The translations under genes were made by a program, and so were the position numbers. From positions 1 to 49,078 of IMG/VR virus record IMGVR_UViG_3300003541_000001: a DNA stretch of 49,078 bases; one strand, given 5' to 3'. Source of the DNA: a virus. Positions 24,120 to 42,624 of this stretch are shown here, in pieces (positions within the stretch are counted from its first letter, which is position 1; each line of letters starts with the position of its first letter). The notes beneath the pieces were generated by a model. The model was not told where the DNA came from and did not search any database. It was given only the letters and a program-made list of their open reading frames with translations.

Positions 24120-24172
24120 AATGTGACTTCATGCAGAACCATATAGTATTAATTTAAAAACAAACATTTATT

Positions 24173-25201: not shown

Positions 25202-25213
25202 TTGTTAATTGAG

Positions 25214-25247
25214 AGTCCTCGTCAATGAGGCGGGGACTTTCTTTTTT
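25214..25247 (+). terminator. Rho-independent terminator after the capsid gene
   Basis: AGTCCTCG (25214..25221) pairs with CGGGGACT (25231..25238), followed by TTCTTTTTT. Confidence 0.7.
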
Positions 25248-25250
25248 ATT

Positions 25251-26627: not shown

Positions 26628-26914
26628 TACCAACAGCATCGAGACCTCAATTAGTGACTCAAGGGACAGTGGTTCAGTGTCCTTCGTGCGGGTGGAAAGG
26701 ATATTTAGGGGATTGCTTACAATCAGTTTATTTGGATCATAGGCCAGGAAGATTAATCCCTGCGGAAAGGGGAGGCAATGGGAAGAACTACCGATGTCCA
26801 CAATCAAATACATCAGGCCAGCATATTTGCAAACATTTGATATTCTTTACCCGATATGACGCTAACAGAAAAATTATCGCACCTGCGGGCCATCAATTTA
26901 GAAGCATTGTTTGA
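26624..26914 (+). CDS. Small zinc-ribbon-like protein
   Basis: VQCPSCGWKG...YRCPQ. Its 3' end overlaps the next ORF by 59 nt. Confidence 0.4.
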   Translation: MIPTASRPQLVTQGTVVQCPSCGWKGYLGDCLQSVYLDHRPGRLIPAERGGNGKNYRCPQSNTSGQHICKHLIFFTRYDANRKIIAPAGHQFRSIV

Positions 26915-27290
26915 TGACTCCTTGAAAGAGAATGAAGGGACAATTCTCGACATGAACAGGGGTCAGATGTATGATGAGGGTACGTTAAACGTGGAGAGTC
27001 CGGGGAAAGTAGAACACTACGCAGAATCAACAATAAGGGCAAAGAAGCGTGCGCCATTTAACAAGACGGAATTTATTACCCTTCGGTGGATGGGTGATTT
27101 TTACAACAGTTTAAAATTGATAATTTTCAAGGATAAGTTTGTAATTACAAGTGATGACAGGATATGGGGAAATTTTTTAGAGACCCAGGACAGATTCGGG
27201 AAAACATTAGGGATGACCGAAAAATCAAAAGGCGAGTTAAGAGAAATAATGAGAGACGAGTTAATCCAAAAAATAAGAAACGCTTTATAA
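26856..27290 (+). CDS. Hypothetical head-tail joining or morphogenesis protein
   Basis: Position only. Confidence 0.5.
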   Translation: MTLTEKLSHLRAINLEALFDDSLKENEGTILDMNRGQMYDEGTLNVESPGKVEHYAESTIRAKKRAPFNKTEFITLRWMGDFYNSLKLIIFKDKFVITSDDRIWGNFLETQDRFGKTLGMTEKSKGELREIMRDELIQKIRNAL

Positions 27291-27899
27291 ATGTCGATTA
27301 AAACTCCGATAATACCGAACCTTGCTTTAAAGGGCATTGATGCAAAGATTCAAGAGATTCAGATTCTTATGGATTCGAATCTCTCATGGCTTGTAAAATC
27401 CTTTGGACTTGCTGATAGGATTGTAGATCAGAAAAATGATAAACCTTATATTTATCCAGCAGTCTTTGAGTCAAATGTTAAAGACCCTATCCCCTTGATG
27501 CCAAGTGATGTTTGGGATTCGTTCGCTTTCTGGACTAAATCAGGAGAGTTAAGGATTGACTCCGAGGGTAGTTTCGTATCAAAGAATCCATTAATAACTC
27601 AAGAGGTCAGTTGTATCTTTTATATGGACATAAGTAAGATTGATAATGTCTCAACTTATAAAGAAACAAAGTCAAAGATCATTGAAGACGTATTCGATTT
27701 CTTTAATAATGTTCATGTGTCTGCAATGCTGGTTCCTGTGAAGTTTATCGAAGATGATATTACCAAAGTCTTTGACGGGTTCACTTTAGATCAACTCGAC
27801 AATAAATGGAAGATGTATCCTAAGTGGACTTGTCGCATGGACTTTGAGTTAAGTTACCGGGATGGTTGTTATTCACTGAATACTTATTCTCATACTTAA
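27291..27899 (+). CDS. Hypothetical neck or tail protein
   Basis: Position only. Confidence 0.5.
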   Translation: MSIKTPIIPNLALKGIDAKIQEIQILMDSNLSWLVKSFGLADRIVDQKNDKPYIYPAVFESNVKDPIPLMPSDVWDSFAFWTKSGELRIDSEGSFVSKNPLITQEVSCIFYMDISKIDNVSTYKETKSKIIEDVFDFFNNVHVSAMLVPVKFIEDDITKVFDGFTLDQLDNKWKMYPKWTCRMDFELSYRDGCYSLNTYSHT

Positions 27900-28207
27900 T
27901 GACATATAATTTCAAGAACTGCAAAAAGGGGAGTATGTTTCCGGGCGTTCAGTTTCAACTGAAGGTTAATGGAGTTGCTAAGGACTTGACCGGATCAGTG
28001 GTTAATCTTACTCTTGACGGGAAGATAGCTTATTCAACTTCAAATGGAGGATTGGTATTCTCGGATATGGTCAACGGTAAGGTTCAGTTTCCGAGACAGA
28101 TAATAAATCTCAATCCTAAAAGTTACCGTATTGGCCTTGTATTTATGTTCCCTGATGGAGAGATGAAAACATATCTTGAAGGAACCTGGAATATCTTAAA
28201 CAGATAA
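27899..28207 (+). CDS. Small beta-rich (Ig-like) virion protein
   Basis: TAATG-coupled ATG 27899. FPGVQFQLKVNGVAKDLTGSVVNLTL resembles phage Ig-like/BppU-N-type domains and also resembles 35683..36027. Confidence 0.45.
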   Translation: MTYNFKNCKKGSMFPGVQFQLKVNGVAKDLTGSVVNLTLDGKIAYSTSNGGLVFSDMVNGKVQFPRQIINLNPKSYRIGLVFMFPDGEMKTYLEGTWNILNR

Positions 28208-28935
28208 TGGAAGAAGAAGTAATCTATATTACTGAGTTAGCGGATGTAATTGAGGAGATTACAATTTCTGTCACAGAAGGGACAAACGAGCCATCCGACG
28301 AGGTTACTATTATCGTTTCAGAAGCATTACAGGGAGAACGGGGGATACAAGGAATACCCGGACGAACACCAGTTAAAGGAGTCGATTATTTTGAGGGCAA
28401 AGATGGTAAGGACGGAGCAAAAGGAGAAAAAGGTGACAATGGCGCACAAGGCATTCATGGAGTTCAAGGAGTCCCCGGTACAAAAGGAGATATAGGATTA
28501 CAGGGTATTCAGGGAGAGAAAGGAGACAAGGGAGATACTGGGGCAGCATCAACAATAGCAGGGCCGAAGGGAGATACCGGAGACAGGGGATTACAGGGGC
28601 CGCAAGGTTTGAAAGGAGACACTGGTTCTCAAGGCTCGGCAGGATCACAAGGACTTAAAGGAGATACAGGCAATACAGGCCCTCAGGGTATTCAAGGGTT
28701 AATGGGGCCGGAAGGGATACAAGGATTGAAGGGTGACAAAGGAGATACAGGATCAAAGGGAGATCAAGGTAATCCTGGTACTAATGGTTTACAAGGTATT
28801 CAGGGGCCAGCAGGGAATAACGGTTCTGATGCTTCGGTAACAAAAGTAAATGTAGAGGCAGTCTTAACCGGAAATATTACGAGTCATAGTCATTCGATTT
28901 ATATAACGAGAGCAGAAATAGAGGGGTTAATATGA
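28207..28935 (+). CDS. Collagen-like (Gly-X-Y repeat) fibre protein
   Basis: An uninterrupted run of GXY triplets from roughly aa 43 to 205 (GERGIQGIPGRTP...GPAGNNG). Confidence 0.85.
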   Translation: MEEEVIYITELADVIEEITISVTEGTNEPSDEVTIIVSEALQGERGIQGIPGRTPVKGVDYFEGKDGKDGAKGEKGDNGAQGIHGVQGVPGTKGDIGLQGIQGEKGDKGDTGAASTIAGPKGDTGDRGLQGPQGLKGDTGSQGSAGSQGLKGDTGNTGPQGIQGLMGPEGIQGLKGDKGDTGSKGDQGNPGTNGLQGIQGPAGNNGSDASVTKVNVEAVLTGNITSHSHSIYITRAEIEGLI

Positions 28936-29777
28936 TAGTATTATCTTCAGTAACGGACAATCTTCAGGTAATTTTGGGAGAGGCACATTCGACTCCTCCT
29001 CAATGTTTTGCCTCATGGAGAGACAGAACAGATACTTCTTTTATCGCTGGTCGCACTGGCATAAACACCAATGGGGCAAATGATGTTAATCTCGTTGCGG
29101 GGCCAAGTTCAGGACAGCGGATAGTTGATTTCTTTACTATCTTCAACGGAGATGTGGTAAGTGCTGTTACGACTGTCAAACTCGATGCTAACAGTACGGA
29201 GTTTATCTTATTCAAATGTACCCTCGCTGCTAGCGAGACGTTAGTATTTCAAGAAGGTGTGGGATTTCATGTACTTGCAAATTCAGGAGCCATAAAACAC
29301 TCTATCAATCAGGGTAATAACACAATGGGAAGTGCTTTAACAGCAGTTGTTTTAGGGTCGGATGTAGTTAATAATAACGGGACTGCTAACACCATTCAGG
29401 ACGTAACGGGGTTGAGTTTTTCTGTTACCGGCGGAGTTACTTATTATTTTTATTTTCTCATTCAATATACTTCTGCAATAGCAACGACAGGATCGAGATG
29501 GTCTATTAACGGCCCTGCTTCTCCTACGATGTTAAGTTATGTATCTGAATATACGCTTACAAGTACAACCACAACTAGAAATGCAGTCTTGCAAGCTTAT
29601 GATTCTCCTGCTGCCTCTAATGCGTCTTCGGTTGTGGCAATGAATATGGCAACAATTGAGGGACTTATAAAACCTTCTTCAAACGGCACTGTGATAGCAC
29701 GGTTTGCAAGTGAGGTTTTGAGTTCGGCTATTACTGCAAAAGCAGGATCGGTTTTATATTATCAACAATTAGGATGA
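28932..29777 (+). CDS. Beta-rich tail structural protein, either the major tail protein by position or the fibre distal domain
   Basis: Immediately upstream of the chaperone/tape-measure genes; Ser/Thr/Ala-rich. Confidence 0.4.
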   Translation: MIVLSSVTDNLQVILGEAHSTPPQCFASWRDRTDTSFIAGRTGINTNGANDVNLVAGPSSGQRIVDFFTIFNGDVVSAVTTVKLDANSTEFILFKCTLAASETLVFQEGVGFHVLANSGAIKHSINQGNNTMGSALTAVVLGSDVVNNNGTANTIQDVTGLSFSVTGGVTYYFYFLIQYTSAIATTGSRWSINGPASPTMLSYVSEYTLTSTTTTRNAVLQAYDSPAASNASSVVAMNMATIEGLIKPSSNGTVIARFASEVLSSAITAKAGSVLYYQQLG

Positions 29778-30205
29778 AAGAGATCGTTTTACATAAAGGG
29801 CTTAATAGAACTAAACTTTTAGTTTATACCGACATTGACCAACTTCCGGCTGACAGGTTCGCTAAACTAAATAAGTTCTGGATGCTTCATGATGAGTTAG
29901 GCAGTTCCTTTGAGGATATTGATAAGATTCATATAACCAGGATTGCGCTCTCGCTTGGTGATCCTGAAAAGGCAAAGAGGGTATTGGATAATATGCGGGT
30001 ATTGATGCACAATATAATAAATGAAGTTAACCCCGAATCGCTTTCTTTCGCTTGTCTGATTCATTCCATTGACGGCGTGGAGATGACTGACTTATCTGAT
30101 GAGAATTTAAACAGGGTTATAAAGTATTTATCTGAACGGGGGTTGACAATAGATGTGTTAAAAAAAAAACAAAGGAAATCAGAGAAGGAATTTACGCTGA
30201 ATTAG
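29774..30205 (+). CDS. Tail assembly chaperone (G-like, zero-frame product)
   Basis: Immediately upstream of the tape measure. Contains an A10 slippery run near its 3' end. Confidence 0.65.
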   Translation: MKEIVLHKGLNRTKLLVYTDIDQLPADRFAKLNKFWMLHDELGSSFEDIDKIHITRIALSLGDPEKAKRVLDNMRVLMHNIINEVNPESLSFACLIHSIDGVEMTDLSDENLNRVIKYLSERGLTIDVLKKKQRKSEKEFTLN

Positions 30206-30522
30206 AGACTTTCTTCCCTGATATATTTACAAATGTTCTTTCAATAAGTTTCTGGTCGAGGATGAAGCAGCGAACACTAAAGATGCTCGAAGCGATCATT
30301 GAGAATAAAGAGTTCGATTCCGAGGGTGACGATATATATTTTGCCTCACTTATTCATCCAAAGAAACTGACCGGTAAGATGACTGATGAAATACGATACG
30401 ATCACGGCTTTGAGAATAACTGTATTATTTTGGGCAAGTTCATAAATCAACCGGTCAAGACACTAACAACAAAAGAATACTTCACGCTGATAGGGTACTA
30501 TAACGAGCAAAACAAAAGGTAA
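29774..30522 (+). CDS. Tail assembly chaperone -1 frameshift fusion (G-T-like product)
   Basis: I translated the -1 frame codon by codon from 30157 to 30264 and found no stop. It joins ...IDVLKK(K) to TKEIREGIYAELETFFPDIF...MKQRTLKML... and ends at the tape-measure start. Confidence 0.55.
30160..30169 (+). promoter_or_regulatory. Slippery A10 tract for a programmed -1 ribosomal frameshift
   Basis: The zero frame reads tta aaa aaa aaa caa. The -1 frame stays open from here through track ORF 30262..30522. Confidence 0.6.
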
Positions 30523-32828
30523 TGGAAGAACCGATCCGCAAAGAGGAGATATTAGATTTTGAGGGAACTCGAAATGAGTTAGCAAAACTTATTGCTGACT
30601 TTGAGAAACTCAATACTCTCTTAGGTAAGGAGTTAAAGGATAATGTTTCTGCATTGACGGTAGTTATTGAGAAATATAATGTCTCCACCAAAGAAGGGCA
30701 AATTGGAGTGCGTAATGCGATTGCAACCGCTGAAAGTTATAGGGAAGAACAGAAAGAATTAACAAAAATAGATAAGGAACTCATCACATTAAAAGCGAAA
30801 CTTAAAGACACATGGAAGGATGCGGCGATTGAAGTTGAGAGATATAAAAAGATGCTTTCTGAAAATAATGCAGAAAATAAAAAACTTATTCAACTGGAGG
30901 GCTCTGCTGTTGGTTCAGTAAATAGATTAAGGGCTGAACTTAAAGAATTAGTTTCCGAATATAATAAACTTGATGCGGCTGCAAGAGAAAGAGCTGCACC
31001 TGCGATTAAAAAATTGGAAGATCAGTTAAAAAGTGCAGACGAGGCAATAGGCAGGCATCAGAGGAATGTAGGGAATTATCCTAAGATTACAAAAATAGCA
31101 TCAGAGGGGTTCGGTAATTTAACTAATGCTATTGGTGGCGTTACGGGAGAAATAGGGAATGCCGTTTCGAGTTTTACAACAGCGGGGGGGGTCGTGGGAT
31201 TATTTACAACTTTGATTGCAGCCCTAGCTACTGCATGGAAAAATACAAAAGAAAATGTAGAGTTGTATCTTGCTTCCGCCGATAAATTAAAATACGGATT
31301 TGCTGGGTATAGTCAAGATGCAGAGAAGGAAAGAAAGGAAACATTAAAAAGGGCAAAGGGGCAAATAAGCGCAGGCATACAAGCACTAACTGAAGCTAAT
31401 GCGGGACTTGAATATCAAGGATCAACTGAAGCGCAAAAGGAAATATATAAATTACAAGCCGATTCTGCTAAATTAATGATTGAGGAAGGGAAATTATTGA
31501 AAGATCAGGTTTATGGGATTAAGGATAAATTTGGATGGACGCAGAAATATAATAAACTTTTACAAGAACAGGAAACTATAAATGATGAGAAACTCGCTAA
31601 GGAAACTAAATGGGAGGGATTAGAGGCTGATTTAACCAAACAAAGAGCTATTGTATTGAGTACAACCGCATCCTCTGTAGAGATGACGAAAGCAAAAAAT
31701 GATGCCGACAAAATAGCGAATCAATTAATCAAAGAGAAAACAGATTTTATAAATTTAGAGATTAAGAATTTAGATGCATTGTCAAAAATAACTGGAACAG
31801 AAGAATTAGTGGAGGAAAAGAGGAATGCATTAGAGAAAGAACTAAATTCTATCCAAAAGGAATATTATAATGATAAGATTAAGATAAATAAACTCGATAA
31901 AATATCAGCAAAGGATGCTAAGGATGTTTTTAAAGCAAGGCACGACCAAGAGGTGATTGCCGAAAAAGAGAATCAGAAATTTATTGATGATTATCTTGAT
32001 ACGGACAAAGACGCCAAAGATAAACAGTGGGATGCTGATGTAAAATATGGGAAGGCCATCTATGATCTTCAAAATAAAAATGCTGCTGAACAATATAAAG
32101 TTTGGGAGAAAGAAAATGAGAAAGAAGCCAAACTTACAGAAGAACATGAGAAGTTAAAACGTGAAATACTCGGTGAATCTTTAAAACGGGTAGGGGATGC
32201 TCTTAATTCTTTGTCTGATCTTTATGAAGCAAATAAACAAAGAGAACTTTCCGCTGCTGGAAGTAATGCAGATGCAAGACTGGAGATAGAAAAGAAATAT
32301 GCAAAGAAACAGCAGGCATTAGGGATAGGGCAGGCTCTTATTAATGGGGCTATGGCAATAACAGAGATATGGAAGAAGTGGTCTGCTAATCCTGTACTTG
32401 CTGCCGTATTTACTGCTTTGTCAGCTGCTGAAACATTGGCTCAAGTAGCAATTATCAAGTCTCAAAAGTTCGCTCGTGGCGGTTCAGGTGTTCTTAACGG
32501 CCCGTCACACGCATCAGGAGGGGTTAACGTAGGCATAGGAGAGGCAGAGGGCGGGGAGCATATATCTATCACATCAAGGAATATGACTTCACGATACGGC
32601 CCTAAAATGCTCGATGCGGTGGCAAACTCTATAAATCAAGGTAAATTCTTTGAAGTATGGGGTAATGTTAACAGATCAATGGGGACGACTGATCCTTATA
32701 CGAAGAAGATGTTCGACCTGATGAACAACACCCCGACAGTTTACACCGACTCATCAGGCAACACAGTAAAAGAATATCCGAATGGACAGAAATATGTAAT
32801 CAAATCATTTAAGTTTTTCACTAATTGA
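30522..32828 (+). CDS. Tape measure protein
   Basis: 768 aa with long coiled-coil Lys/Glu-rich stretches, hydrophobic Gly/Ala segments and FARGGSGVLNGPSHASGG near the C-terminus. Canonical position. Confidence 0.8.
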   Translation: MEEPIRKEEILDFEGTRNELAKLIADFEKLNTLLGKELKDNVSALTVVIEKYNVSTKEGQIGVRNAIATAESYREEQKELTKIDKELITLKAKLKDTWKDAAIEVERYKKMLSENNAENKKLIQLEGSAVGSVNRLRAELKELVSEYNKLDAAARERAAPAIKKLEDQLKSADEAIGRHQRNVGNYPKITKIASEGFGNLTNAIGGVTGEIGNAVSSFTTAGGVVGLFTTLIAALATAWKNTKENVELYLASADKLKYGFAGYSQDAEKERKETLKRAKGQISAGIQALTEANAGLEYQGSTEAQKEIYKLQADSAKLMIEEGKLLKDQVYGIKDKFGWTQKYNKLLQEQETINDEKLAKETKWEGLEADLTKQRAIVLSTTASSVEMTKAKNDADKIANQLIKEKTDFINLEIKNLDALSKITGTEELVEEKRNALEKELNSIQKEYYNDKIKINKLDKISAKDAKDVFKARHDQEVIAEKENQKFIDDYLDTDKDAKDKQWDADVKYGKAIYDLQNKNAAEQYKVWEKENEKEAKLTEEHEKLKREILGESLKRVGDALNSLSDLYEANKQRELSAAGSNADARLEIEKKYAKKQQALGIGQALINGAMAITEIWKKWSANPVLAAVFTALSAAETLAQVAIIKSQKFARGGSGVLNGPSHASGGVNVGIGEAEGGEHISITSRNMTSRYGPKMLDAVANSINQGKFFEVWGNVNRSMGTTDPYTKKMFDLMNNTPTVYTDSSGNTVKEYPNGQKYVIKSFKFFTN

Positions 32829-34582
32829 GAGCAACTTATTTTATATCATTTGACGGGGTTAACTACTCACAATTCTATCCTACTAACGAGCCAAAAGTTA
32901 AATTGGAGCAGGAGGCAGGAGAGATGTTCTTTAGGTGGAAAGTAGATGCTTTTAAGATCGGTAAGACGCAAAACGCAACGGTATTCGCAACACTCTTATC
33001 GTGGTTCTTTGATACAACCAAATATACTACTAATATTTATTACCAGATCAAAGAGAAGGGAGTCATTACGTTTCCTTTTATAGGTTCTGTTTTGCTTGGT
33101 AAAATGGATTCTCAAAATGGGATTTATGAAGGCACTCCCGAACCTAATGATGCTTATTATCCTATTCTTAAAAAATATGATATTAAATATCAAAATCCAT
33201 TTGGCATATCTTCCTATGCTTACATAGATAACGACCCAAATACAAACGCTTTCGCAAATGTTAGTTTTACCACATTTACCCCTGCGGGCAATGGGTCTTT
33301 AATAAACTGGGTAAACAATACCAGAGGAGCAGCGAAGGCAAGGAACATAATATCTGCACCTTCAACAATGGATATTATCTGCAAGGTAACCACATTCTCC
33401 GGTGACTCTATAATATTTAGAGTTGTAGATAATGCAGGGACTCCGACGGGGCCAAATGTAACAGTAAATGCAGTAGGTGAATATCTCATCAGTACTGGGA
33501 CTGGTGCGCCTTATTACATCGAAGCGTACAATACTTCTCCCACTTTAAAAGTTGGTACGTTTACTCTTTATTTTTTCAATGTAGACACCGGAGATTTAGT
33601 TTCTACTTGTGGTCCACTGCGTAATTGTCTTAATGCTTTTTTCGGTGCTTCATATATGAATTTAAGTATAGCCACCGCATATTCAACAATACTATGGAAT
33701 AATGCACTTGGTTCCGATCCACCGGCATCGATCTCTACTTATATGACTGCGCATTCGACCTTTGATTATGTTTTACAAGCCGCTGCTATTTTGAATAATC
33801 TATGGCTTTCAAGGACGGATGCTTTTACTTCAACTCTCGCTTCTGCACATGACTTATCGCTGAAAGATTTAGCGGATTTCCTTAAATATAAGTTCAGAGT
33901 ATATTGGTTCATTGATGAGGACGGCAAATTCAGGCTCGAACATGAGAAATATTTTAGAAGTTATGACCCTCAGATAAATATTACCTCTGCAACTTATGCC
34001 AGTGATAAACCCGAAGTGGATGCACGTATTTACTCGTACCAGGTAGGCGAGGTTTATAAGCAATATACCTACGCAGAAAATAATCAATCTACTGTGGACT
34101 GGATTCCTTATCCTATTGAATTTACTCAAGTAGTAAGTGGAAACAGGCAGGATTTTAATGTTGGATCATTCTCGACCGATATTCAGTACATATCAGACAA
34201 CCCAACGAAAGCAGATAATTCTGGATTTGTCCTTTTAAGAATGATTCAAGGGACTTCTCAAAAGATAGTATCTATTGATGCAAGCGATATAACAGCGACT
34301 AACTTTTATCTCAATAGTCTTTTAGGATGGCATTACATCCTAAAAAAATATCATTCTTATTTTGCCAGCGCAAATATAGGGACGGTTAATGGCAGTGCCT
34401 ATACTTTTAGTCATGTGAAAGAATATCTCACACAAGAAAATATAAAGTTTCATATCGTCACTCAATTAGACTGGAAGAAACCCGTGACTCTTTCGCACGG
34501 TATCGGTTGGTTGAGAAATGCAGAATACTCCCCAGAATCAGGGGTTATAAATATTAACGTTGGTTTTACTCCTAATCCATGA
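32825..34582 (+). CDS. Tail tip or distal tail protein
   Basis: First large ORF after the tape measure. Confidence 0.5.
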   Translation: MRATYFISFDGVNYSQFYPTNEPKVKLEQEAGEMFFRWKVDAFKIGKTQNATVFATLLSWFFDTTKYTTNIYYQIKEKGVITFPFIGSVLLGKMDSQNGIYEGTPEPNDAYYPILKKYDIKYQNPFGISSYAYIDNDPNTNAFANVSFTTFTPAGNGSLINWVNNTRGAAKARNIISAPSTMDIICKVTTFSGDSIIFRVVDNAGTPTGPNVTVNAVGEYLISTGTGAPYYIEAYNTSPTLKVGTFTLYFFNVDTGDLVSTCGPLRNCLNAFFGASYMNLSIATAYSTILWNNALGSDPPASISTYMTAHSTFDYVLQAAAILNNLWLSRTDAFTSTLASAHDLSLKDLADFLKYKFRVYWFIDEDGKFRLEHEKYFRSYDPQINITSATYASDKPEVDARIYSYQVGEVYKQYTYAENNQSTVDWIPYPIEFTQVVSGNRQDFNVGSFSTDIQYISDNPTKADNSGFVLLRMIQGTSQKIVSIDASDITATNFYLNSLLGWHYILKKYHSYFASANIGTVNGSAYTFSHVKEYLTQENIKFHIVTQLDWKKPVTLSHGIGWLRNAEYSPESGVININVGFTPNP

Positions 34583-35364
34583 GAACAGTATTTGCATCAT
34601 TACCTTTTTATGATTCTCTCGTCAAACAAGACCGGGTGAGAGAGAATGCCGTTATTCCTATCCACTGTCCCAGGACGCAATTACCGCCGTTCGAGATCGC
34701 CGTTGGTTCGGCTACGGTTGCAACTATAAACACTATTAAGTTAGTGGCTTGTGATGGCACTAAAACAACGATAAATGGATTCTTCACAGCTTTTCCGACA
34801 GTTACGGCTTCTGTTTCGACAACCCTCGGCCCGTATATTCAATATAACGGTACTGCTTTAAGTTCTTCTCTTCCGGTGGGATCTTATTATGTAGAGATTG
34901 TCAAAAGTGATGCAACCTATTACTCTGACTGGATCAATGTCAGAACAATGGCGAATCCATTAGAGAAATTTATAAAGATAGAGTTTAGTGATGCTAATAA
35001 CCTGGGGGATTTGCGATATGAAAACGGGTTTAAACAACAGGTCTGGCTCGAAGCAGTCTTAAACAATCCTACTCATGAAATGGTAAACATCGGAGAGGAA
35101 AAAGACGGCGTTTTTGTCGCTGAAAAGGTAGTCTCGAAGAAGATTTATTCTATAATAGCCTATGTCTCAAGAAGCCTTTATGAATGCCTTATGAGACTTC
35201 CGCAACATAGTACAATTACCATCACTGATGAGACGGGACAGACCTACACTCCGGCGGTGGGTAATATAACGGTAGAACCTGGGGAGTGGAATTTTTACGA
35301 TATATGCAAGATAAAAATAAATTTCAATGACGGGGCAAATTCGTCTTTTGGATGGACAAAGTAA
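34579..35364 (+). CDS. Tail or baseplate protein
   Basis: Position only. Confidence 0.5.
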   Translation: MRTVFASLPFYDSLVKQDRVRENAVIPIHCPRTQLPPFEIAVGSATVATINTIKLVACDGTKTTINGFFTAFPTVTASVSTTLGPYIQYNGTALSSSLPVGSYYVEIVKSDATYYSDWINVRTMANPLEKFIKIEFSDANNLGDLRYENGFKQQVWLEAVLNNPTHEMVNIGEEKDGVFVAEKVVSKKIYSIIAYVSRSLYECLMRLPQHSTITITDETGQTYTPAVGNITVEPGEWNFYDICKIKINFNDGANSSFGWTK

Positions 35365-35386
35365 TAACCTTTAAATATTTAAGACA

Positions 35387-35671
35387 ATGGAAAGCATAGG
35401 ATTAGCAAGGATCACAGGACACGCAAACGCGGGCAATCAGCAGTTCTTACAGGTAGCCACCACCGAGGCACAGTCAATTCATTTCTGGGCCTTCACGCCA
35501 CTGAACGGAGATGCTGTTATCGCTGCATTAACGAACGAAGATGGGACAAGTGCGCTTGGCTATTGGAGGGGAGGGACAAAAACGGCCTATCAGAACGTCC
35601 TTTATACGGGAAGTTTCAAGGCCATTACACTCACTTCGGGGATTGTTAAACTTGAATTAAGCCAGCAGTAA
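35387..35671 (+). CDS. Small tail-module protein
   Basis: ORF track. Confidence 0.5.
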   Translation: MESIGLARITGHANAGNQQFLQVATTEAQSIHFWAFTPLNGDAVIAALTNEDGTSALGYWRGGTKTAYQNVLYTGSFKAITLTSGIVKLELSQQ

Positions 35672-35682
35672 AAATAAAAGTT

Positions 35683-36027
35683 ATGTCAAAAGCATTTAAT
35701 ATTGGATCAGCGAGGATAGATATTTCTGCGATAGCAGGAGACACTATCGATATGAGTTTTTCTGTTGCTTTCAATGGTGTTGCTTATGACATGACAGGGA
35801 TGCAACTCGACATGAAGATTGTTTATGAATTAAGCGGAATTACTGAAAGAACGTTATCGAGTGCTGGGACTTCTCCGGCTTTAACCATCTCGACCTCGAC
35901 TTTTAATATCTTAACAACTCCGTTTATCAATCCGGGTGTTTATAAATACGATCTTCAGTTGACTAACGGGACAGTTGTTTCGACAATCGGTGGCGGAGAT
36001 ATTGAAATATTACCTCAAATAACATAA
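35683..36027 (+). CDS. Small Ig-like tail-module protein
   Basis: GDTIDMSFSVAFNGVAYDMTGMQLDMKIV, similar in style to 27899..28207. Confidence 0.5.
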   Translation: MSKAFNIGSARIDISAIAGDTIDMSFSVAFNGVAYDMTGMQLDMKIVYELSGITERTLSSAGTSPALTISTSTFNILTTPFINPGVYKYDLQLTNGTVVSTIGGGDIEILPQIT

Positions 36028-36030
36028 GCA

Positions 36031-36510
36031 ATGATAGGAATAGGAATAGGAATCGGCATAGGATTTGGAAGCAAGAAAAAAAATCCATATGGCCCTGAGA
36101 AAGTTACCAACGGGACATTTGATACAAACTTAAACGGATGGACACATCACCCAACTTTTCAATGGGATACCGCAGAATGGAGTGCAGGAAAATTGCACCT
36201 TGTCAGCAACGGAGTTAATGAAGGTGGGGGGATAATGTGTTTTTACCAATCACTGACTTTGACTGCCGGGAAGACATATAAAATAGAATATTCGGCTACA
36301 AGAGCAAGTGGAACCTATTGTATAGTTAGTATTGAAAATGCTGTTGGTGATACAAATCTTGGATATAATAAAGTATTAAATGGTAATTTTATCGAGGATA
36401 CAACATTTATATGTGGTGCTTCTGCTACATTTATAATTGATTTGTGGGCTTCTTGTACTTATGCCTCAGATTATACACTTGATAATTTCTCAATAAAAGA
36501 AGTATTATGA
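36031..36510 (+). CDS. Carbohydrate-binding-module-like tail protein
   Basis: VTNGTFDTNLNGWTHHP is typical of a CBM4/9-type domain N-terminus. Starts with an (Ile-Gly)n repeat. Confidence 0.5.
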   Translation: MIGIGIGIGIGFGSKKKNPYGPEKVTNGTFDTNLNGWTHHPTFQWDTAEWSAGKLHLVSNGVNEGGGIMCFYQSLTLTAGKTYKIEYSATRASGTYCIVSIENAVGDTNLGYNKVLNGNFIEDTTFICGASATFIIDLWASCTYASDYTLDNFSIKEVL

Positions 36511-39092
36511 GTTTTGTAATTACACATACCAATCCTAAAATATTTACTATCGCCCCAGTGACAGGGGCGCCTAATGGTGTCTGTTCATCGTTGGTTGCTG
36601 TTCCTTATTCCGGTACTCAGATACTACTGACGTGGGCAAATGGTTCAACTAATGAAACCTCAATAAGTATTCAGTGTGCGCCTTTAGGTGGTACTTACTC
36701 AAATGTTCATAAAACTATAGGGGGAGTAACTTCTTATTTAGTTGATGGACTGACTATCGGAACAAAATACTATTTCAAGGTAAGGCCATTTAGAGGAAAT
36801 TCGGCAGGCAACTATTCAAATATAGCAAGTGCGACAACTTATTGTAATGAATGTATTAATTATGTTACAAGAGTTACCGCCGATGGAGGGACTGTATTGT
36901 CCGGTGCTGATGGTTCTTATGGTTATCTGAATGAGAAAATAATAAGATTTAAAACTAATGGTTTTTATACTTCTGCTTCTATACTAACAATCCCTTCGGG
37001 AATAAAGAGCGGAAAGATATATTCTATATTACCTATTGATGGTTCGGGCGATTGGGTATTTTCAAGAGCTTCGAGTAAATGGTTGGAAGATTCTACCGGT
37101 GTATTTACAGAAAGAGTTACCAATATGCCGGGGTTAAGATGGAATGGGACAGAATATGAATTTATTTCAGAACCGGCGGTTTCAAATCTATTTACAAATC
37201 CGTCAGCACCAGTAACTCAAGATATCGTAGTTAATAGTTCAGAGACCTATGGAATTAGTTGTAAAGGAACCGGAACCGTTTATTTAACAGGAGCATTAAC
37301 AGCAGTCGTTACTGAATTAACACCTTATGTTGGCACGTCTTCAGGAACTTCGCTTCATGTTTCTTGTACGGGTACACTTACTCATGTCCAGGTTGAAAAT
37401 TCAGGGGGCTTTATAAGTTCACCTATTTACGGCGGGGCGGGGGTTCATTCAAGACAGAAAGATGTTGCAAACTTAACCTCTATTACTTCTCTGATCGGAC
37501 AAACAGAAGGTACTCCTTATGTTGAACTTTCAAATAGGCAAACTAATCCATCTCCTGCCGGTGTTGTATTATCCTTAAACGATGGTACTACTAATAATAG
37601 ACTGGATATAGTATTAAACAAAGACACTAATGGGTATCGTTATGGGTTAACTATGGTCAATGGAGGAGGAACGCAGATTGGTTTTGATGGTCAATATCTT
37701 TCTACCTTAGCCAGTACATTAAGAATGGGGGTTGGATATAAGATTAACGATTCGTCTTTTTATATTAATGGGATATGCCAGGGGACAGATACTGTTTGCA
37801 CTATCCCTGCAATGAGTGAAGCAGATTTAGGCTGTAGGCTTGCAAGTGCTCAATTCTGCGATGGTTTAACTGTTTATGGTCTTTCTAAAACAAGACTTAC
37901 AGATGCTCAATTACAAGTATTGACCAACAACCCACCGACAGCAGGAGTAAATGATATTTCTGCTCAATGTGTTGTTAATGCAAATTATAATATCTCATTC
38001 AGTCTTAAAGGTAAATCAGGTGATCCACAGGTTATAATTAACTGGGGAGATGAACATACTTCTACTTTAACAATGGATGGAGCTTCTCATACTCTTTCAC
38101 ATACCTACACAAAAGATGGCACTTATAATACCCTGATAACAAACACCACTTCACTTCTTGAAATAGACATGACCACCACCGGGAATAATCCTTCTTTTGG
38201 TGCTGATGTTTCGGTGTTTAATGTCTGTACTCAACTTGAAAAGATAATCCTCACTGCATCAAAATTCGATCATGGTGACGTTGACGGATGGCCTCAGACA
38301 TTAAAAGAAGTAGATATAAGTGATATTGTAGAAACAGGTTCTCAGGTAGGGGGGACAATGTACCTGCCAAATCTTGAATTATTATTAATATTTGGAAGGA
38401 ATACAATAGCCGGGAATATTGCACTTCATACAAAATTAATAAGAGTGTTTCTATCAGGATATTGTACTTTTGGGGGCGATATAACCCCATGTACAGCAAT
38501 GGTTCAGATGGAGAAAGGCGGATTGCCCTGGTTGAATACATCATATTTATTTGGGACTATTGCCCCCTCAACTAATTTTATCTGCGTAAATGCCCCCAAT
38601 AAATTAGGGGGAGATATAACTGCAAATAATTTCAAGTATTTAAGTCTTGCTGATGATAATGAAGCGTACGGCGATGTAAGCGGGTGGACAAATACATATT
38701 ATCTTGGCCACAATGGGATACACCTATTAACCGGGACACTATCTCAGATGACAAGACTCCAATATTATAACGGTGGTGATGCTTTTACCAAGTTGACGAG
38801 AGTGAATAATATGCATCAACTCTGTAATTTTCATATGCTTGCCTCGTGGTTATATTCAAGTGCAGAAATTAATCAGATCCTTGCTGACTTTAGAGCGAAT
38901 GAGGATTATCCGAAGGTTGATCCTATTGATGGTTTTGAATACGGAAAGAATATGAGGTATATCTATTTAGATGGTTATGGTTCGGAACCAGCAACGGGAC
39001 AGGGAGGACTTGATCTAAATCATTTACGATCATATCATTCTCCTAACGATGATCCCCAGTATGATGTGTGGACAATTTACACTAATTTATAA
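36507..39092 (+). CDS. Multi-domain receptor-binding tail fibre or spike (FN3, lectin-like, PKD, LRR-like)
   Basis: FN3-like LLTWANGSTNETSISIQ...YYFKVRPF, PKD-like INWGDEH...HTYTKDGTYN, and a C-terminal repetitive Leu-rich segment. Confidence 0.65.
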   Translation: MSFVITHTNPKIFTIAPVTGAPNGVCSSLVAVPYSGTQILLTWANGSTNETSISIQCAPLGGTYSNVHKTIGGVTSYLVDGLTIGTKYYFKVRPFRGNSAGNYSNIASATTYCNECINYVTRVTADGGTVLSGADGSYGYLNEKIIRFKTNGFYTSASILTIPSGIKSGKIYSILPIDGSGDWVFSRASSKWLEDSTGVFTERVTNMPGLRWNGTEYEFISEPAVSNLFTNPSAPVTQDIVVNSSETYGISCKGTGTVYLTGALTAVVTELTPYVGTSSGTSLHVSCTGTLTHVQVENSGGFISSPIYGGAGVHSRQKDVANLTSITSLIGQTEGTPYVELSNRQTNPSPAGVVLSLNDGTTNNRLDIVLNKDTNGYRYGLTMVNGGGTQIGFDGQYLSTLASTLRMGVGYKINDSSFYINGICQGTDTVCTIPAMSEADLGCRLASAQFCDGLTVYGLSKTRLTDAQLQVLTNNPPTAGVNDISAQCVVNANYNISFSLKGKSGDPQVIINWGDEHTSTLTMDGASHTLSHTYTKDGTYNTLITNTTSLLEIDMTTTGNNPSFGADVSVFNVCTQLEKIILTASKFDHGDVDGWPQTLKEVDISDIVETGSQVGGTMYLPNLELLLIFGRNTIAGNIALHTKLIRVFLSGYCTFGGDITPCTAMVQMEKGGLPWLNTSYLFGTIAPSTNFICVNAPNKLGGDITANNFKYLSLADDNEAYGDVSGWTNTYYLGHNGIHLLTGTLSQMTRLQYYNGGDAFTKLTRVNNMHQLCNFHMLASWLYSSAEINQILADFRANEDYPKVDPIDGFEYGKNMRYIYLDGYGSEPATGQGGLDLNHLRSYHSPNDDPQYDVWTIYTNL

Positions 39093-39112
39093 GATACTTA
39101 CAAATTAAAAAT

Positions 39113-39682
39113 ATGAAAAAACTATTATTCCTTTTAATCTCGGTATTTCTGCTTAGTGGATGTACTTGTGTTCTCTCTCAGGTGGTACCGCAAAAGATTT
39201 ATGCAACGGCGACAAGTTGTTCAGCTCCACTGCCTGATTACTGGACAAAGATAACAGCCTCGGATAACTGCGAGATAGCTAATAAGACACAAACACCAGC
39301 TGCAGGGTATATGCTTACCCCTACAAACAAGGTAACGACAGTAATAATGAAAGCAACGGACGCATCAGGTAACTTCAAACAAGTCTCATTTACCGTTACG
39401 CTACTTGACACTATTAAGCCAAAACTAACTATCGACCCTTCATTATTGGCCTATCAGGTTGAGCAGATCAATGATATTTATACCTTTGCCGACAACCTTG
39501 TATTGCAAAAATATTATAATCTGATGCAGCAGTCATGGATTGACTCTATTCCGGGATTGAGATTAAAACTGAATGAAGATCAGAATAGAAAATTATTAGT
39601 TGTAACTTCGGAATTAAAACCAGACGGAAGCAGGTATCGTTACGTTTTGCCTGCTGACTCGGTTGGATTGTTTTATAAATAA
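39113..39682 (+). CDS. Lipoprotein with an HYR/Ig-like domain
   Basis: MKKLLFLLISVFLLSGC lipobox. ASDNCEI...ATDASGNFKQVSFTVTLLDTIKP resembles a HYR domain. Confidence 0.55.
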   Translation: MKKLLFLLISVFLLSGCTCVLSQVVPQKIYATATSCSAPLPDYWTKITASDNCEIANKTQTPAAGYMLTPTNKVTTVIMKATDASGNFKQVSFTVTLLDTIKPKLTIDPSLLAYQVEQINDIYTFADNLVLQKYYNLMQQSWIDSIPGLRLKLNEDQNRKLLVVTSELKPDGSRYRYVLPADSVGLFYK

Positions 39683-39797
39683 TAATTAAAATTAAATGCC
39701 ATGTGTCCAGAACCAGTTGACCCGGTTGATCCGGATCCTCCAAAACCACCACCAGATCCCAAACTTGTTAAATCTGTAAAGAAACCGAAGAAGAAAA

Positions 39798-40187
39798 ATG
39801 CTTAAGAAGATAGACTGGATAGAATTTACCGGCGTGGTTATCTGCTTATTGTTTGCGATAGTCATCAGCCTCTATCATATCTCTTTTGAGGGTTATCTCG
39901 GTTTAACGAATAGACAATGGGGTGGAGTGTGGGCCATTGCTGAAAACGGGTTTGCACTCACCCTTATTGTTTTGGGCATCATGTATTTTCAAGGATATCT
40001 AAGGAAGATTTGTTATGTCTTTGTGCCTTATTTTATATTAAAACTTATCTATCATTTCAGTTGTTACTCCGGGATTCATTTGCTGGCGCAAAAATCATGG
40101 GAACGACTCTGGAGTATCGCTTGTGTTATTTTATTTATCGTCGGATTTGCCTATTGTCTAATCATAATTCGTAAACGTCATGCTTGA
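39798..40187 (+). CDS. Multi-pass membrane protein (holin candidate)
   Basis: About four hydrophobic helices; first gene of the lysis-like cassette. Confidence 0.45.
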   Translation: MLKKIDWIEFTGVVICLLFAIVISLYHISFEGYLGLTNRQWGGVWAIAENGFALTLIVLGIMYFQGYLRKICYVFVPYFILKLIYHFSCYSGIHLLAQKSWERLWSIACVILFIVGFAYCLIIIRKRHA

Positions 40188-40479
40188 ATTTTTAAAAAAG
40201 AAGTGGGTGGAGTGGCTTATAAGTGTAGGGCTTGTTATCCTTACTGTTATGCTCACTAACACATTTACCATGAAAAGAGAGGAAAACACTCTTATCAAAC
40301 AAGAACTCAATAAGAAGGCGAGCGTTGAATATGTCGATAAGCAGGACGCAAGTACTAAAGAATACGTAGATAAGGAATGTGACAATACAAAGGAATTAAT
40401 AAAACAGGCAGTTGACCAGCAGACAGAACGCATCAAATCAGTTGACCATAAGTTAGATATATTGTTAGGCAAAAAATGA
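40180..40479 (+). CDS. Membrane-anchored coiled-coil protein
   Basis: N-terminal TM helix WLISVGLVILTVMLT, then charged helical repeats (YVDKQ/YVDKE). Confidence 0.5.
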   Translation: MLEFLKKKWVEWLISVGLVILTVMLTNTFTMKREENTLIKQELNKKASVEYVDKQDASTKEYVDKECDNTKELIKQAVDQQTERIKSVDHKLDILLGKK

Positions 40480-40691
40480 AGGAAATCAGCACAATGATAA
40501 GCAGGGTTATCCTGAAAACACTTTTCATACTTCTTTTTATTTGTGTTGGATTACTTCTCAAGGAAGTTATCAGAGAGGCTAAGTTTCAACGGTATATAAA
40601 GAAGGAGATGAAAATAAATAACGAGAAGGCAGAAATAGGACTTTCGAGAGGTAATTCCGTATCTATTGATTCACTTATAAAAGAAAAATGA
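40476..40691 (+). CDS. Small single-pass membrane protein
   Basis: VILKTLFILLFICVGLLL. Confidence 0.5.
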   Translation: MKEISTMISRVILKTLFILLFICVGLLLKEVIREAKFQRYIKKEMKINNEKAEIGLSRGNSVSIDSLIKEK

Positions 40692-41110
40692 AAAGCATTA
40701 TTTCAAGACGGTATAGACCTAACTCCACTACTGGACGGTGGGTCACTTTCGATCAGGATAATAAGATTCTTGAACTCGCAACTATTGAACTCCCCGACAG
40801 AGGAAATCAACATAACTGCTCATGTATTCCCGAAGGCACTTATACGATAAACAAAGTCACCGACCCAGCAATAGTGAAGGCTCATGGCCGGTGCTTCCAG
40901 GTACAAAATGTCCCCGGTCGGTCGGGTATCTTTATTCACATCGGAAATTATGCTACAGGCGTTAAGGTGGACACAAAGGGATGTATTTTGCCTGGGTTAT
41001 ATTTGTTCGACCTCAATAAAGATGGTGAACTCGATGTTGCTGAAAGTACAAAGGCTATTGAGAAATTATTTGATGTTTTACCTGATGTTTCAACACTAAT
41101 AATAATATAA
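40688..41110 (+). CDS. DUF5675/YkuD-like putative cell-wall hydrolase (endolysin candidate)
   Basis: CIPEGTY, GRSGIFIHIGN and DTKGCILPG form a His...Gly-Cys catalytic-type arrangement like L,D-transpeptidase-fold enzymes. Confidence 0.5.
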   Translation: MKSIISRRYRPNSTTGRWVTFDQDNKILELATIELPDRGNQHNCSCIPEGTYTINKVTDPAIVKAHGRCFQVQNVPGRSGIFIHIGNYATGVKVDTKGCILPGLYLFDLNKDGELDVAESTKAIEKLFDVLPDVSTLIII

Positions 41111-41112
41111 TT

Positions 41113-41319
41113 ATGAAAGTATTAAATTTTATCTGGGAGTATTTAGTCCTTATTGTTAAGGCACTCGGTAAATTTCTGAAGTGGATATTTGCCCCGGAGG
41201 TAACTATCGGAGTCTTGGCCGTTCTTATTTATCTGCACGGTCATCATTTCTGGGCTTTTGTCCTCATAGCGTGGGGGATACTCTTGACTATTAACGAATA
41301 TAAACAAAGCAAATCATGA
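41113..41319 (+). CDS. Small two-TM membrane protein (holin/antiholin candidate)
   Basis: Two hydrophobic helices in 68 aa. Confidence 0.5.
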   Translation: MKVLNFIWEYLVLIVKALGKFLKWIFAPEVTIGVLAVLIYLHGHHFWAFVLIAWGILLTINEYKQSKS

Positions 41320-41549
41320 ACCTCTCTACTGACAATCTCGGAAAGCCCTCAAATAAGAAGGCAAAGGCCGTTGCAGACTTCTTTCTTTACAGCCTGCCGT
41401 TATATTCAACTGCTGTTGCTATTGCGGCAGATAAATTATGGAGTGCTAATACAGCTCTTATCATTACGATAGTGATAAATGTTGTCATAATTACACTTAA
41501 AGGATTGACAAAATTCACCGCCGAGGAGGAACCAATACAGCAACCATGA
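41316..41549 (+). CDS. Small two-TM membrane protein
   Basis: FFLYSLPLYSTAVAIAA and ALIITIVINVVIITL. Confidence 0.5.
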   Translation: MNLSTDNLGKPSNKKAKAVADFFLYSLPLYSTAVAIAADKLWSANTALIITIVINVVIITLKGLTKFTAEEEPIQQP

Positions 41550-42052
41550 AAGCAAAATGGCTGTTTATAGCCCTTTTTAGCCTGATTCTGACCTCTTGCA
41601 TCACCCAACGGAGGTGTAGTATTAAATTCCCTTCTGTTAACGACACGATCAAAATAACAACGGTCAAGGATTCGATAGTAATTAGGGACACTACAATATT
41701 TATAAAGATACCTGGTGAGAAGGTCACTGACTCTATTTCGATCCCTTGTCCTGAAGTTCATAATTACATCCCTAAAAAGGTTTGTGCCGAGACTCAACTT
41801 GCTTCAGCGTGTGCATGGTGGCAATATCCTGTTATTAAATTAGAGTTAATGCAAAAAGATACGACCATAGTAAAGAGGCTTAACAGAGCTTTGAAAGAGT
41901 CATATTACTGGCGGACACTTTACGAGAAGGTTCATATAACTCCGGCCCCGGTTAAATACGTTCCGGGATTCTATAAGGGATGCCTTTGGATATTGATAGG
42001 GGAAATATTGGTCATCGCTTTATTTATCGCTTTCAAGAAATTCATAAAATAG
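41546..42052 (+). CDS. Unimolecular spanin candidate (N-terminal lipoprotein signal plus C-terminal TM anchor)
   Basis: MKAKWLFIALFSLILTSC lipobox and C-terminal LWILIGEILVIALFIAF, at the end of the lysis cassette. Confidence 0.55.
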   Translation: MKAKWLFIALFSLILTSCITQRRCSIKFPSVNDTIKITTVKDSIVIRDTTIFIKIPGEKVTDSISIPCPEVHNYIPKKVCAETQLASACAWWQYPVIKLELMQKDTTIVKRLNRALKESYYWRTLYEKVHITPAPVKYVPGFYKGCLWILIGEILVIALFIAFKKFIK

Positions 42053-42075
42053 GTTTTCGTTTCATAGTTTTGGTT

Positions 42076-42105
42076 CCCCGGCGTACGAGTTGCGCTGGGG
42101 TTTTT
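42076..42105 (+). terminator. Rho-independent terminator closing the late/lysis operon
   Basis: CCCCGGCG (42076..42083) pairs with CGCTGGGG (42093..42100), then TTTTT. Confidence 0.7.
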
Positions 42106-42113
42106 AAAACAAA

Positions 42114-42145
42114 TTTGCATAGTAAATAAATAGGTTTTAAATTTG
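42114..42145 (+). promoter_or_regulatory. Bacteroidota-type promoter (TTTG-N20-TAAATTTG), copy 1 of a duplicated 37-bp promoter
   Basis: TTTG at 42114..42117 and TAAATTTG at 42138..42145. 36 of 37 nt are identical to 42510..42546. Confidence 0.65.
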
Positions 42146-42149
42146 CCAT

Positions 42150-42210
42150 AGTTCGTTGAAGTTATTAGGCGGTATCACTGAACCCGGGTTCGACTCCCGG
42201 CATCTCCACA
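42150..42210 (+). ncRNA. ssrA: tmRNA acceptor piece (P2 3' strand, T-arm, 3' acceptor strand)
   Basis: GTATCACT at 42172..42179, T-arm at 42184..42200, CATCTCC at 42201..42207, A at 42208. CCA is not fully encoded (CAA). Confidence 0.55.
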
Positions 42211-42327
42211 ATCGCCTTGATTCGTTAACCCGTCACGTTAGTACGGTTTTAGTGATTCTTTGCAGGCTGTAAAAGCCGATATACAAGTAGCGCTTAAATT
42301 GTATATTGATGCCGGAAGAATCATTCG

Positions 42328-42440
42328 GGGGATGACTGGTTTTGACAGGATACATGGCAGTAATGGAGAACTAAAGCCTCAAACGGCAAAACAATAAATC
42401 TGTTCGAAAGAACACAGCTAAAGGCAGTAGCCTAGCGACT
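42328..42440 (+). ncRNA. ssrA: tmRNA coding piece (5' acceptor strand, D-loop analogue, P2 5' strand, tag reading frame)
   Basis: GGGGATG at 42328..42334, ACTGGTTTTGAC, AGGATAC at 42347..42353. The open frame GCC(42376)/GGC(42385)...GCA GTA GCC TAG(42433..42435) encodes (ASN)GKTINLFERTQLKAVA. Confidence 0.55.
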
Positions 42441-42471
42441 AAACCCGGTGAAGATAGTAACCGGGTTTTTT
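42441..42471 (+). terminator. Rho-independent terminator of the tmRNA transcript
   Basis: AAACCCGG (42441..42448) pairs with CCGGGTTT (42461..42468), and the T-run extends to 42471. Confidence 0.7.
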
Positions 42472-42512
42472 ATTGTTCACAAAAGAAAGAGCTAAAAATA
42501 ATTGAAAATAAA

Positions 42513-42544
42513 TTTGCATGGTAAATAAATAGGTTTTAAATTTG
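42513..42544 (+). promoter_or_regulatory. Bacteroidota-type promoter, copy 2 of the duplicated 37-bp promoter
   Basis: TTTG at 42513..42516 and TAAATTTG at 42537..42544, with the same N20 spacing as copy 1. Confidence 0.65.
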
Positions 42545-42624
42545 CCTTGCTATTGATGTAACGAACATTAAAACAATTTAAAAAGGAGGTAACGATGCGA
42601 ATGTGAAACTAAAACAATCGCAAA

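Follow-up and report, generated by a model that had tools for sequence, protein, structure and literature searches.

A candidate circularly permuted tmRNA gene, with its own promoter and terminator, in a phage genome with a probable Bacteroidota host

Organization and detection of the permuted gene

The virus record IMGVR_UViG_3300003541_000001 of IMG/VR was analyzed as a single stretch of 49,078 nt (positions 1 to 49,078, hereafter the window), and positions 42150..42471 of this stretch carry what is, as judged by gene order, software calls and covariation, a genuine circularly permuted gene for transfer-messenger RNA (tmRNA, ssrA). As read from the sequence, a single promoter and a single terminator enclose one transcription unit, in which the 3' half of the tRNA-like domain precedes the 5' half. 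A permuted tmRNA gene had been proposed here in an earlier reading of the letters alone (the sequence-only reading), and the promoter, T arm, acceptor strands, P2 helix and terminator were all found where that reading had placed them. The features of the locus are listed below.

42114..42145, + strand: promoter of the tmRNA unit, TTTG (-33)-N20-TAAATTTG (-7), of the Bacteroidota sigma-A type
42150..42208, + strand: acceptor piece (normally the 3' part of a tmRNA), from Rfam alignment, co-fold and covariation on alignment A1 (see below)
42150-54, 42161-64 and 42172-80, + strand, acceptor piece: 5' strand of helix H1 (AGTTC), strand of helix H2 and 3' strand of P2
42184-88, 42189-95 and 42196-42200, + strand, acceptor piece: T stem CCGGG, T loop TTCGACT and T stem CCCGG
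42201-07 and 42208, + strand, acceptor piece: acceptor 3' strand CATCTCC and discriminator A
42209..42327, + strand: intervening segment of 119 nt between acceptor piece and coding piece
42328..42471, + strand: coding piece, from sequence reading, Rfam alignment, covariation and co-fold
42328-34, + strand, coding piece: acceptor 5' strand GGGGATG, then ACTGGTTTTGAC up to 42346
42337-46, + strand, coding piece: D-loop analogue TGGTTTTGAC
42346-53, 42361-64 and 42368-72, + strand, coding piece: strands of P2, H2 and H1, then a 12-nt linker
42385..42435, + strand: tag reading frame with GGC resume codon, 16 codons (GKTINLFERTQLKAVA) and TAG stop at 42433-35
42441..42471, + strand: intrinsic terminator with stem AAACCCGGT / ACCGGGTTT, 10-nt loop and T run, from sequence and co-fold
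42502..42546, + strand: second promoter copy, preceding the next operon (replication/recombination)

The permuted-tmRNA detection of ARAGORN, which had been suggested as a check, called a permuted tmRNA at this locus and no other RNA gene in the 49-kb window. The tag assigned by the program (ENKFAW*, 42504-42524) was discarded because it lies beyond the terminator and within the next promoter. When the whole window was scanned with Rfam 15, RF04321 (tmRNA_permuted) was the only family to exceed its gathering score (47), with a + strand match to 42150..42399 of 49.3 bits and E = 8.6e-7, well outside what chance would produce. The covariance-model support that had been asked for came from this generic permuted model; the alpha, beta and cyano models (RF01849, RF01850 and RF01851) reached the gathering threshold neither in the window nor in any member of the family described below. 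As a positive control, RF01850 scored 89-99 bits on other phage contigs (L016, L019, L022 and L025). In a permissive scan the best match in the clan that includes the tRNA and standard tmRNA models was a partial RF00023 match of 29.2 bits, and three weaker overlapping matches of the same clan were suppressed.

Co-folding of the two proposed pieces with RNAcofold (42150-42208 plus CCA, with 42328-42471) gave a minimum-energy structure that is the two-piece tmRNA fold, as the sequence-only reading had anticipated, with a 7-bp acceptor stem, the T arm, P2 and two further helices between the pieces. GGGGATG and CATCTCC pair over all 7 bp, and G3 (42330) pairs with T42205 to give the G3:U70 alanine identity element. 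P2, proposed from the complementarity of AGGATAC (42347..53) and GTATC(A)CT (42172..79), was reproduced as a 10-bp helix in which 42346-53 pairs with 42172-80 and A42177 is bulged, and the additional helices pair AGUUC (42150-54) with GAACU (42368-72), and 42161-66 with the region around 42361. A T arm with a 5-bp stem and a 7-nt TTCGANT loop is present together with a D-loop analogue, GGUUUUGAC, and without an anticodon arm. Two hairpins form within the tag frame, one at 42401-14 with a GAAA loop and one at 42417-36 whose 3' strand includes the stop codon, the latter resembling tmRNA helix 5. By sequence and by the covariation described below, a tRNA-Ala-like domain is split over two swapped gene halves that are joined by a long P2.

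Relatives, covariation and conserved elements

Relatives were retrieved with the pattern TGGTTTTGACAG-N28-58-AAACGGCAAAACAAT, which yielded 10 true members among IMG/VR viral contigs, one GTDB genome contig (72.7 kb, from a Prolixibacteraceae metagenome-assembled genome, the sole match of the genome-collection scan) and 22 metagenome loci; distinct genes of this family, referred to as the GKTI family, number approximately 22 on viral and metagenome contigs. Contig L040, where the match lies within a coding region, and L036, where the tmRNA is of standard form, were left out. An exact 23-mer of the T arm and acceptor strand was rejected as a lineage marker, since it matches many unrelated phage tmRNAs, standard as well as permuted. 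On RF04321 the relatives scored 53-71 bits, the family including the window 49-71 bits, and the beta-type (L016, L019, L022, L025) and cyano-like (L011) phage tmRNAs 91-120 bits. The carriers are otherwise unrelated phages on contigs of 45-165 kb, and tblastn of all window open reading frames (ORFs) against every fetched family locus found close to zero shared genes; because the carriers are otherwise unrelated, the tmRNA gene appears to behave as a mobile cassette. Neither the region 41000-44000 nor the gene alone had a blastn homologue in 50,697 phage records (INPHARED), where only 35-nt T-arm matches to actinophage tRNA/tmRNA genes were returned and no isolate phage carries the gene, and protein-anchored IMG/VR searches with a 168-aa lipoprotein-like ORF and a DUF5675 protein gave no confirmed related locus. 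No clear nearest relative emerged when the two halves were aligned pairwise to 11 phage tmRNAs of standard form.

All 18 complete members place the T arm and acceptor 3' strand 52-400 nt upstream of the 5' strand, and in each of them the T stem (5/5) and acceptor stem (7/7) are fully paired and G3:U70 is kept, with sequences that differ (acceptor stems GGGCTCG/CGAGTCC, GGGGCCG/CGGCTCC and GGGCCTG/CAGGTCC, for example). To measure covariation, 10 diverse members stripped of the intervening segment were aligned with MAFFT from sequence alone (A1). Standard pairs were formed by 90.6% of cells, as against at most 56% when the 3' partners were slid by 1-3 columns; both sides had changed in 16 of 32 pairs, and none of 500 shuffles matched the real alignment on any of five measures. 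G3:U70 was unchanged in all ten sequences and pairs 4:69, 5:68 and 6:67 showed compensatory changes, the T stem was 100% paired with three pairs altered on both sides, and helices 1-3 of the P2 region were 80-91% paired with seven pairs altered on both sides. The changes in acceptor stem, T stem and P2 among relatives are thus compensatory rather than disruptive, which was the outcome that the sequence-only reading had asked of related contigs.

The tag-like frame that had been noted downstream of the acceptor strand was located at 42385..42435, and encodes GKTINLFERTQLKAVA* with the C-terminal end ...AGKTINLFERTQLKAVA. The same 16-residue peptide is encoded by family member L047, in which six codons differ from the window, all of them synonymous or stop-to-stop. 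ARAGORN calls the homologous tag frame in other relatives, namely GKTIPLFSNAQVRLAA (L032), GKTIEMYNPSLRAVA (L038), GKTINMVERPQELRLAA (L039), GKTIEMFNQQLRAVG (L042), GKTIQMFDRSLKAAA (L043) and GKTIRMFNPSLRVAV (L045). The frame is open in all 18 complete relatives and in each combines a resume context with a stop codon and a hydrophobic C-terminus; the family tags end in AVA, LAA, AAA, MVA or VAA. The hairpins within the frame also vary in a compensatory manner (GTTC/GAAC to GTAC/GTAC or GGTC/GACC; AGGC/GCCT to AAGC/GCTT). From these comparisons the tag reading frame is, as far as codon substitutions can tell, constrained at the peptide level. Such a phage-specified tag would offer a direct handle on which proteins are tagged during infection. 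Automated tag annotations of the GKTI family need checking, given that ARAGORN mis-assigns the tag of the window.

The tmRNA cassette is flanked by two 45-nt repeats (42103-42147 and 42502-42546) that are 93% identical and 399 nt apart from start to start, and the full TTTG-N17-21-TAnnTTTG consensus occurs at two + strand sites genome-wide, one in each repeat. Upstream sequence was available for 17 relatives, and in 9 of these the conserved acceptor-piece start (A)GTTCRTTGA is preceded by a TAnnTTTG box whose end lies 4-13 nt away, the background frequency of the box being 0.62 per kb. These data make the predicted transcription start reasonably well supported. Since the adjacent replication/recombination operon has a near-copy of the promoter, the tmRNA is probably made together with those genes, suggesting co-regulation with that operon. 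At the other end of the unit the terminator, likely the 3' end of the coding piece, has a stem that covaries in L063, L047, L056 and L068, and the loop TGAAGATAGTA and the post-stop sequence GCGACTAA are conserved in these members, which suggests a role of the loop beyond termination. The terminator scan tool missed 42441..42471, its loop limit being 8 nt and this loop being of 10 nt.

The intervening segment, which ranges from 52 to 400 nt in the family, is by the following comparisons not a random spacer. In the window it contains the motif TCGCCTTG at 42212-19 and a hairpin with stem 42230-33 / 42243-46 and loop CACGTTAGT. A hairpin with this loop is found in nine members including the window; the loop is conserved and the stem varies in a compensatory manner (CCGT/ACGG, CTGT/ACAG, CAGT/ACTG, CGGC/GCCG), one pair occurring as CG, UA, AU and GC. 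In an alignment of the segment (A2) the hairpin was 98% paired, compared with at most 44% in slid controls. The motif TCGCCTT(A/G) is present in 13 of 22 intervening segments, and no Rfam family matches the elements of the segment. Elsewhere in the family the same slot is filled by a different, likewise conserved module of two hairpins, by a tRNA-Met or by what seems a short ORF remnant, and it seems to hold exchangeable RNA modules. These could represent a processing signal or a separate small RNA, and may show how two-piece tmRNAs mature.

Several of these alternative occupants were seen in individual contigs. The two-hairpin module, consisting of a hairpin CTGGG..CCCAG, then TTAGGAGATTTCGGGGAAGCCTAA, then ACAAAAA, lies at 2544-2640 in L032, at 6723-6820 in L042 and on the minus strand near 4340 in L046, and is also present in L048 and L052. 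The intervening segment of the L039 tmRNA gene (3723-4244, minus strand) includes a tRNA-Met gene at 3927-4002, and that of L059 also includes one, with 3 nt between the end of the tRNA and the start of the coding piece; such an arrangement fits tmRNA processing by tRNA enzymes. A comparable case, with a tRNA-Ala within a permuted tmRNA, has been mentioned (PMC11915505). In L047 the segment has grown by approximately 340 nt to 400 nt, and the insert contains a 46-codon ORF (MEKFWNKVQKTVTCWNWTAAKRNGYGVIKINLD...), possibly what remains of the N-terminus of an HNH-type homing endonuclease.

Proposed function and alternative explanations

The two ends of the window share an exact 81-nt direct repeat (1-81 = 48998-49078), so the genome, of 48,997 bp, is circular and completely assembled. 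The + strand carries the long ORFs and all proteins for which a family match was obtained, and the genes identified encode a portal, a large terminase, virion proteins, a collagen-repeat protein and a YqaJ exonuclease, as well as a DnaA-like helix-turn-helix protein, methylases and, in the lysis region, a DUF5675 protein. No integrase, resolvase or SmpB was found among the 40 proteins scanned from this complete genome. The portal had 75 matches in the phage collection at 32-35% identity, of which 74 belong to phages of Flavobacterium, Bacteroides, Parabacteroides, Croceibacter, Elizabethkingia or Alistipes, the remaining one being named only 'Bacteriophage'. A Bacteroidota-type phage had been supposed from the sequence, and the genera of the portal matches and the TTTG/TAnnTTTG promoter agree with this. 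On these portal and promoter data the host phylum is reasonably well supported.

Taken together with the covariation data, we consider it highly probable that the locus is a functional circularly permuted ssrA gene, organized as a self-contained promoter-to-terminator cassette in a complete, non-integrating, siphovirus-like phage of 49 kb with a Bacteroidota host, and we infer a function in infection. The mechanism proposed is drawn from known tmRNA biology as represented in PMC9004378, where Keiler, Shapiro and Williams 2000 is cited, and in PMC11915505. Host RNA polymerase would start at approximately 42149-50 and stop at the terminator, which would make the primary 5' end of the transcript the start of the acceptor piece. 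Host RNase P would cut before G42328 and a 3' processing activity would trim after A42208, releasing the 119-nt intervening segment and leaving the acceptor piece with a free 3' end and the coding piece with a free 5' end; as ACAA and not CCA stands in the gene at the former end, CCA would be supplied post-transcriptionally by the CCA-adding enzyme of the host. The pieces would remain paired through the 7-bp acceptor stem and approximately 20 bp of P2, H2 and H1. Host alanyl-tRNA synthetase (AlaRS) would charge the RNA by way of G3:U70, and host SmpB (the phage has none) with EF-Tu would bring it to stalled ribosomes, where translation would resume at GGC and append A-GKTINLFERTQLKAVA, a tag with a small, hydrophobic C-terminus resembling ssrA degrons. 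The benefit could be additional ribosome-rescue capacity during the breakdown of host mRNAs, or the marking of truncated proteins with a tag chosen by the phage.

A number of observations weigh against this interpretation. The RF04321 score exceeds its threshold by a mere 2 bits. CCA is not encoded by the gene, which reads ACAA at 42208-11, and within the family L042 alone encodes it. Conservation of the D-loop analogue and of GKTI, the first four residues of the tag, is by construction, since the retrieval pattern itself fixes both; conservation elsewhere in the gene counts as independent evidence. Just 5' of the T stem the window reads GAAC (A42181) where the other nine of nine aligned relatives read GGAC, a deviation that probably accounts for its low Rfam score, and the benefit to the phage outlined above is speculation. 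A PK1-like pseudoknot between P2 and the resume codon was sought by a complementarity search across 18 members and no shared helix was found; helix H1 and the resume codon are only 12 nt apart, and none of the pseudoknots PK1 to PK4 was recognized in the gene or its family. PK1 or a substitute structure is normally important to tmRNA function. All sequence and structure features of a two-piece tmRNA are, by alignment and predicted fold, otherwise present.

That no PK1 was recognized and that the window deviates at this near-invariant position beside the T stem would both suit the main rival explanation, that the RNA is a decoy whose tRNA-like domain titrates host SmpB or AlaRS and inhibits host trans-translation, the tag frame remaining untranslated. 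A precedent is the decoy role proposed for mycobacteriophage DS6A (PMC4131195, PMC11915505), whose tRNA-like-domain-only RNA is, like the gene described here, a phage-borne, reduced tmRNA derivative. The DS6A RNA has no tag frame, whereas the GKTI family appears to keep one under peptide-level constraint, and this conserved frame argues against a decoy: it is open with resume context, stop codon and hydrophobic C-terminus in 18/18 complete relatives, and differs between the window and L047 at synonymous or stop-to-stop positions only. A decoy would need no coding piece, no helix-5-like hairpin around the stop codon and no conservation of the peptide, and we regard this explanation as improbable. 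Less credible still is that the window holds a decaying, non-functional copy, a pseudogene of an otherwise functional family, even though its RF04321 score is the lowest of the family (49.3 versus 53-71 bits) and the GGAC to GAAC change is accompanied by a bulge in P2; the helices, G3:U70, T loop, tag frame, promoter and terminator are all intact, and the close relatives L063 and L047 share the architecture. The sequence-only reading had itself raised a further alternative, that the halves are leftovers of a host ssrA attachment site, produced by imprecise excision of a temperate phage, and do not constitute a gene. tmRNA genes are often prophage integration sites (PMC4383910), and the same 23-nt T-arm/acceptor sequence occurs in eight IMG/VR contigs with no tRNA or tmRNA call over the match. 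However, the absence of a detectable integrase from the complete genome makes such a remnant very unlikely, the halves are complementary and co-vary over approximately 20 unrelated phage contigs, and the unit comes with a conserved promoter, tag frame and terminator of its own, so that on these sequence comparisons the attachment-site explanation is effectively refuted.

Comparison with known tmRNAs and further observations

Phage two-piece tmRNAs have already been published and the gene in the window is detectable by standard tools, and the novelty claimed for it in the sequence-only reading was therefore overrated. Out of 133 unique tmRNA structures from 18,146 phage genomes, ARAGORN suggested 53 to be two-piece forms, these being from isolate genomes and mostly marine, and the OM43 phage Melnitz carries a two-piece tmRNA of alphaproteobacterial type (PMC9004378); the current tmRNA database holds 79 phage sequences (PMC11915505). 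The marine phage examples (Melnitz, pelagimyophages and cyanophages; PMC9004378) resemble the window gene in being permuted, ARAGORN-detectable, borne by non-integrating phages and preceded by a promoter, and both presumably use host SmpB. They fall into the tmRNA lineages of their hosts, alphaproteobacterial or cyanobacterial, whereas the host phylum predicted here has a one-piece tmRNA, and no riboswitch is present at the window gene, unlike in the marine comparison (PMC9004378). Among tmRNA instances in Bacteroidota genomes 24,380 of 24,454 are of standard form, and 48 are permuted, these being labelled by best-scoring model only (PMC11915505, Supplementary Table 2); the 48 may include members of the GKTI family.

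With the bacterial two-piece tmRNAs covered by RF04321, of which Caulobacter provides the studied case, the window gene shares its gene order, G3:U70 tRNA-like domain, P2 and kind of tag frame. It differs in being minimal, the acceptor piece starting at the first P2-extension helix and the coding piece ending at a terminator approximately 35 nt past the stop codon with none of PK1 to PK4 recognized, in having Gly (GGC) rather than Ala at the resume codon, and in belonging to a family with a long intervening segment that contains conserved modules. Standard one-piece phage tmRNAs (the mycobacteriophage Bxz1 group and Bacillus phage G; PMC4131195) are likewise phage-borne ssrA genes but, unlike the window gene, are unpermuted, 290-420 nt long and have a pseudoknot-rich body. 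In common with the family, the standard-form tmRNA of viral contig L036 has the resume context TAAACGGCAAAAC and a tag that begins with GKT.

A full-text search of the literature turned up no account of a permuted tmRNA from Bacteroidota phages, and the gene appears to belong to a phage-borne lineage for which no description was found in the literature. What seems less ordinary about it is that no lineage model reaches threshold, that the architecture is minimal and that the intervening RNA modules are conserved. It is conceivable, if on balance unlikely, that the GKTI family is a fourth, independently permuted lineage which arose in Bacteroidota phages and spread as a cassette among unrelated phages, its intervening slot carrying exchangeable modules (the hairpin loop CRCKTTAGT with the TCGCCTT motif, the two-hairpin module and tRNA-Met) that direct maturation or act as separate small RNAs. 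Were the lineage independent, permutation of the tmRNA gene would have happened at least four times. Bacteroidota phages, including relatives of gut Bacteroides phages, would in any case join the viruses that bring their own ribosome-rescue RNA, and a compact two-piece tmRNA lacking recognizable pseudoknots would be a useful minimal model of what trans-translation needs.

A second group of phage permuted tmRNAs was seen in IMG/VR (L001, L002, L008, L023, L028 and L034), in which the intervening segment is short and the tags include GEQVELAMAA, GEQVEMAMAA and GKQVEYAMAA. Its members match the generic RF04321 only, at 67-73 bits, and L034 at least has the identical 5' end GGGGATGACTGGTTTTGACAGG; the group may be related to the GKTI family. 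In five family members (L054, L038, L043, L052 and L055) the acceptor-piece start sequence AGTTCATTGAAA recurs past the post-tag hairpin, approximately 35-55 nt after the stop codon, which could be a relic of a tandem duplication behind the permuted gene or a shared processing signal. Immediately after the coding piece in L032, the Rfam tRNA model matches over 140 nt (2783-2922, 42.8 bits) with no ARAGORN tRNA call, and this may represent a tRNA gene with a long insertion or intron.

Elsewhere in the window a sugar-modification cluster occupies 9474-14880 and 18589-19623 and includes glycosyltransferases (GT2, DXD-motif) and nucleotide-sugar epimerase-like and beta-1,4-glycosyltransferase-like genes, a set that is unusually large for a 49-kb phage. 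Paralogous N6/N4 DNA methylase genes were also observed (ORFs 4340-4990 and 47658-48314), with DNA stretches 4338-4848 and 47695-48178 that are 77-85% identical; the two genes are approximately 43 kb apart in the window and lie near each other on the circular map.

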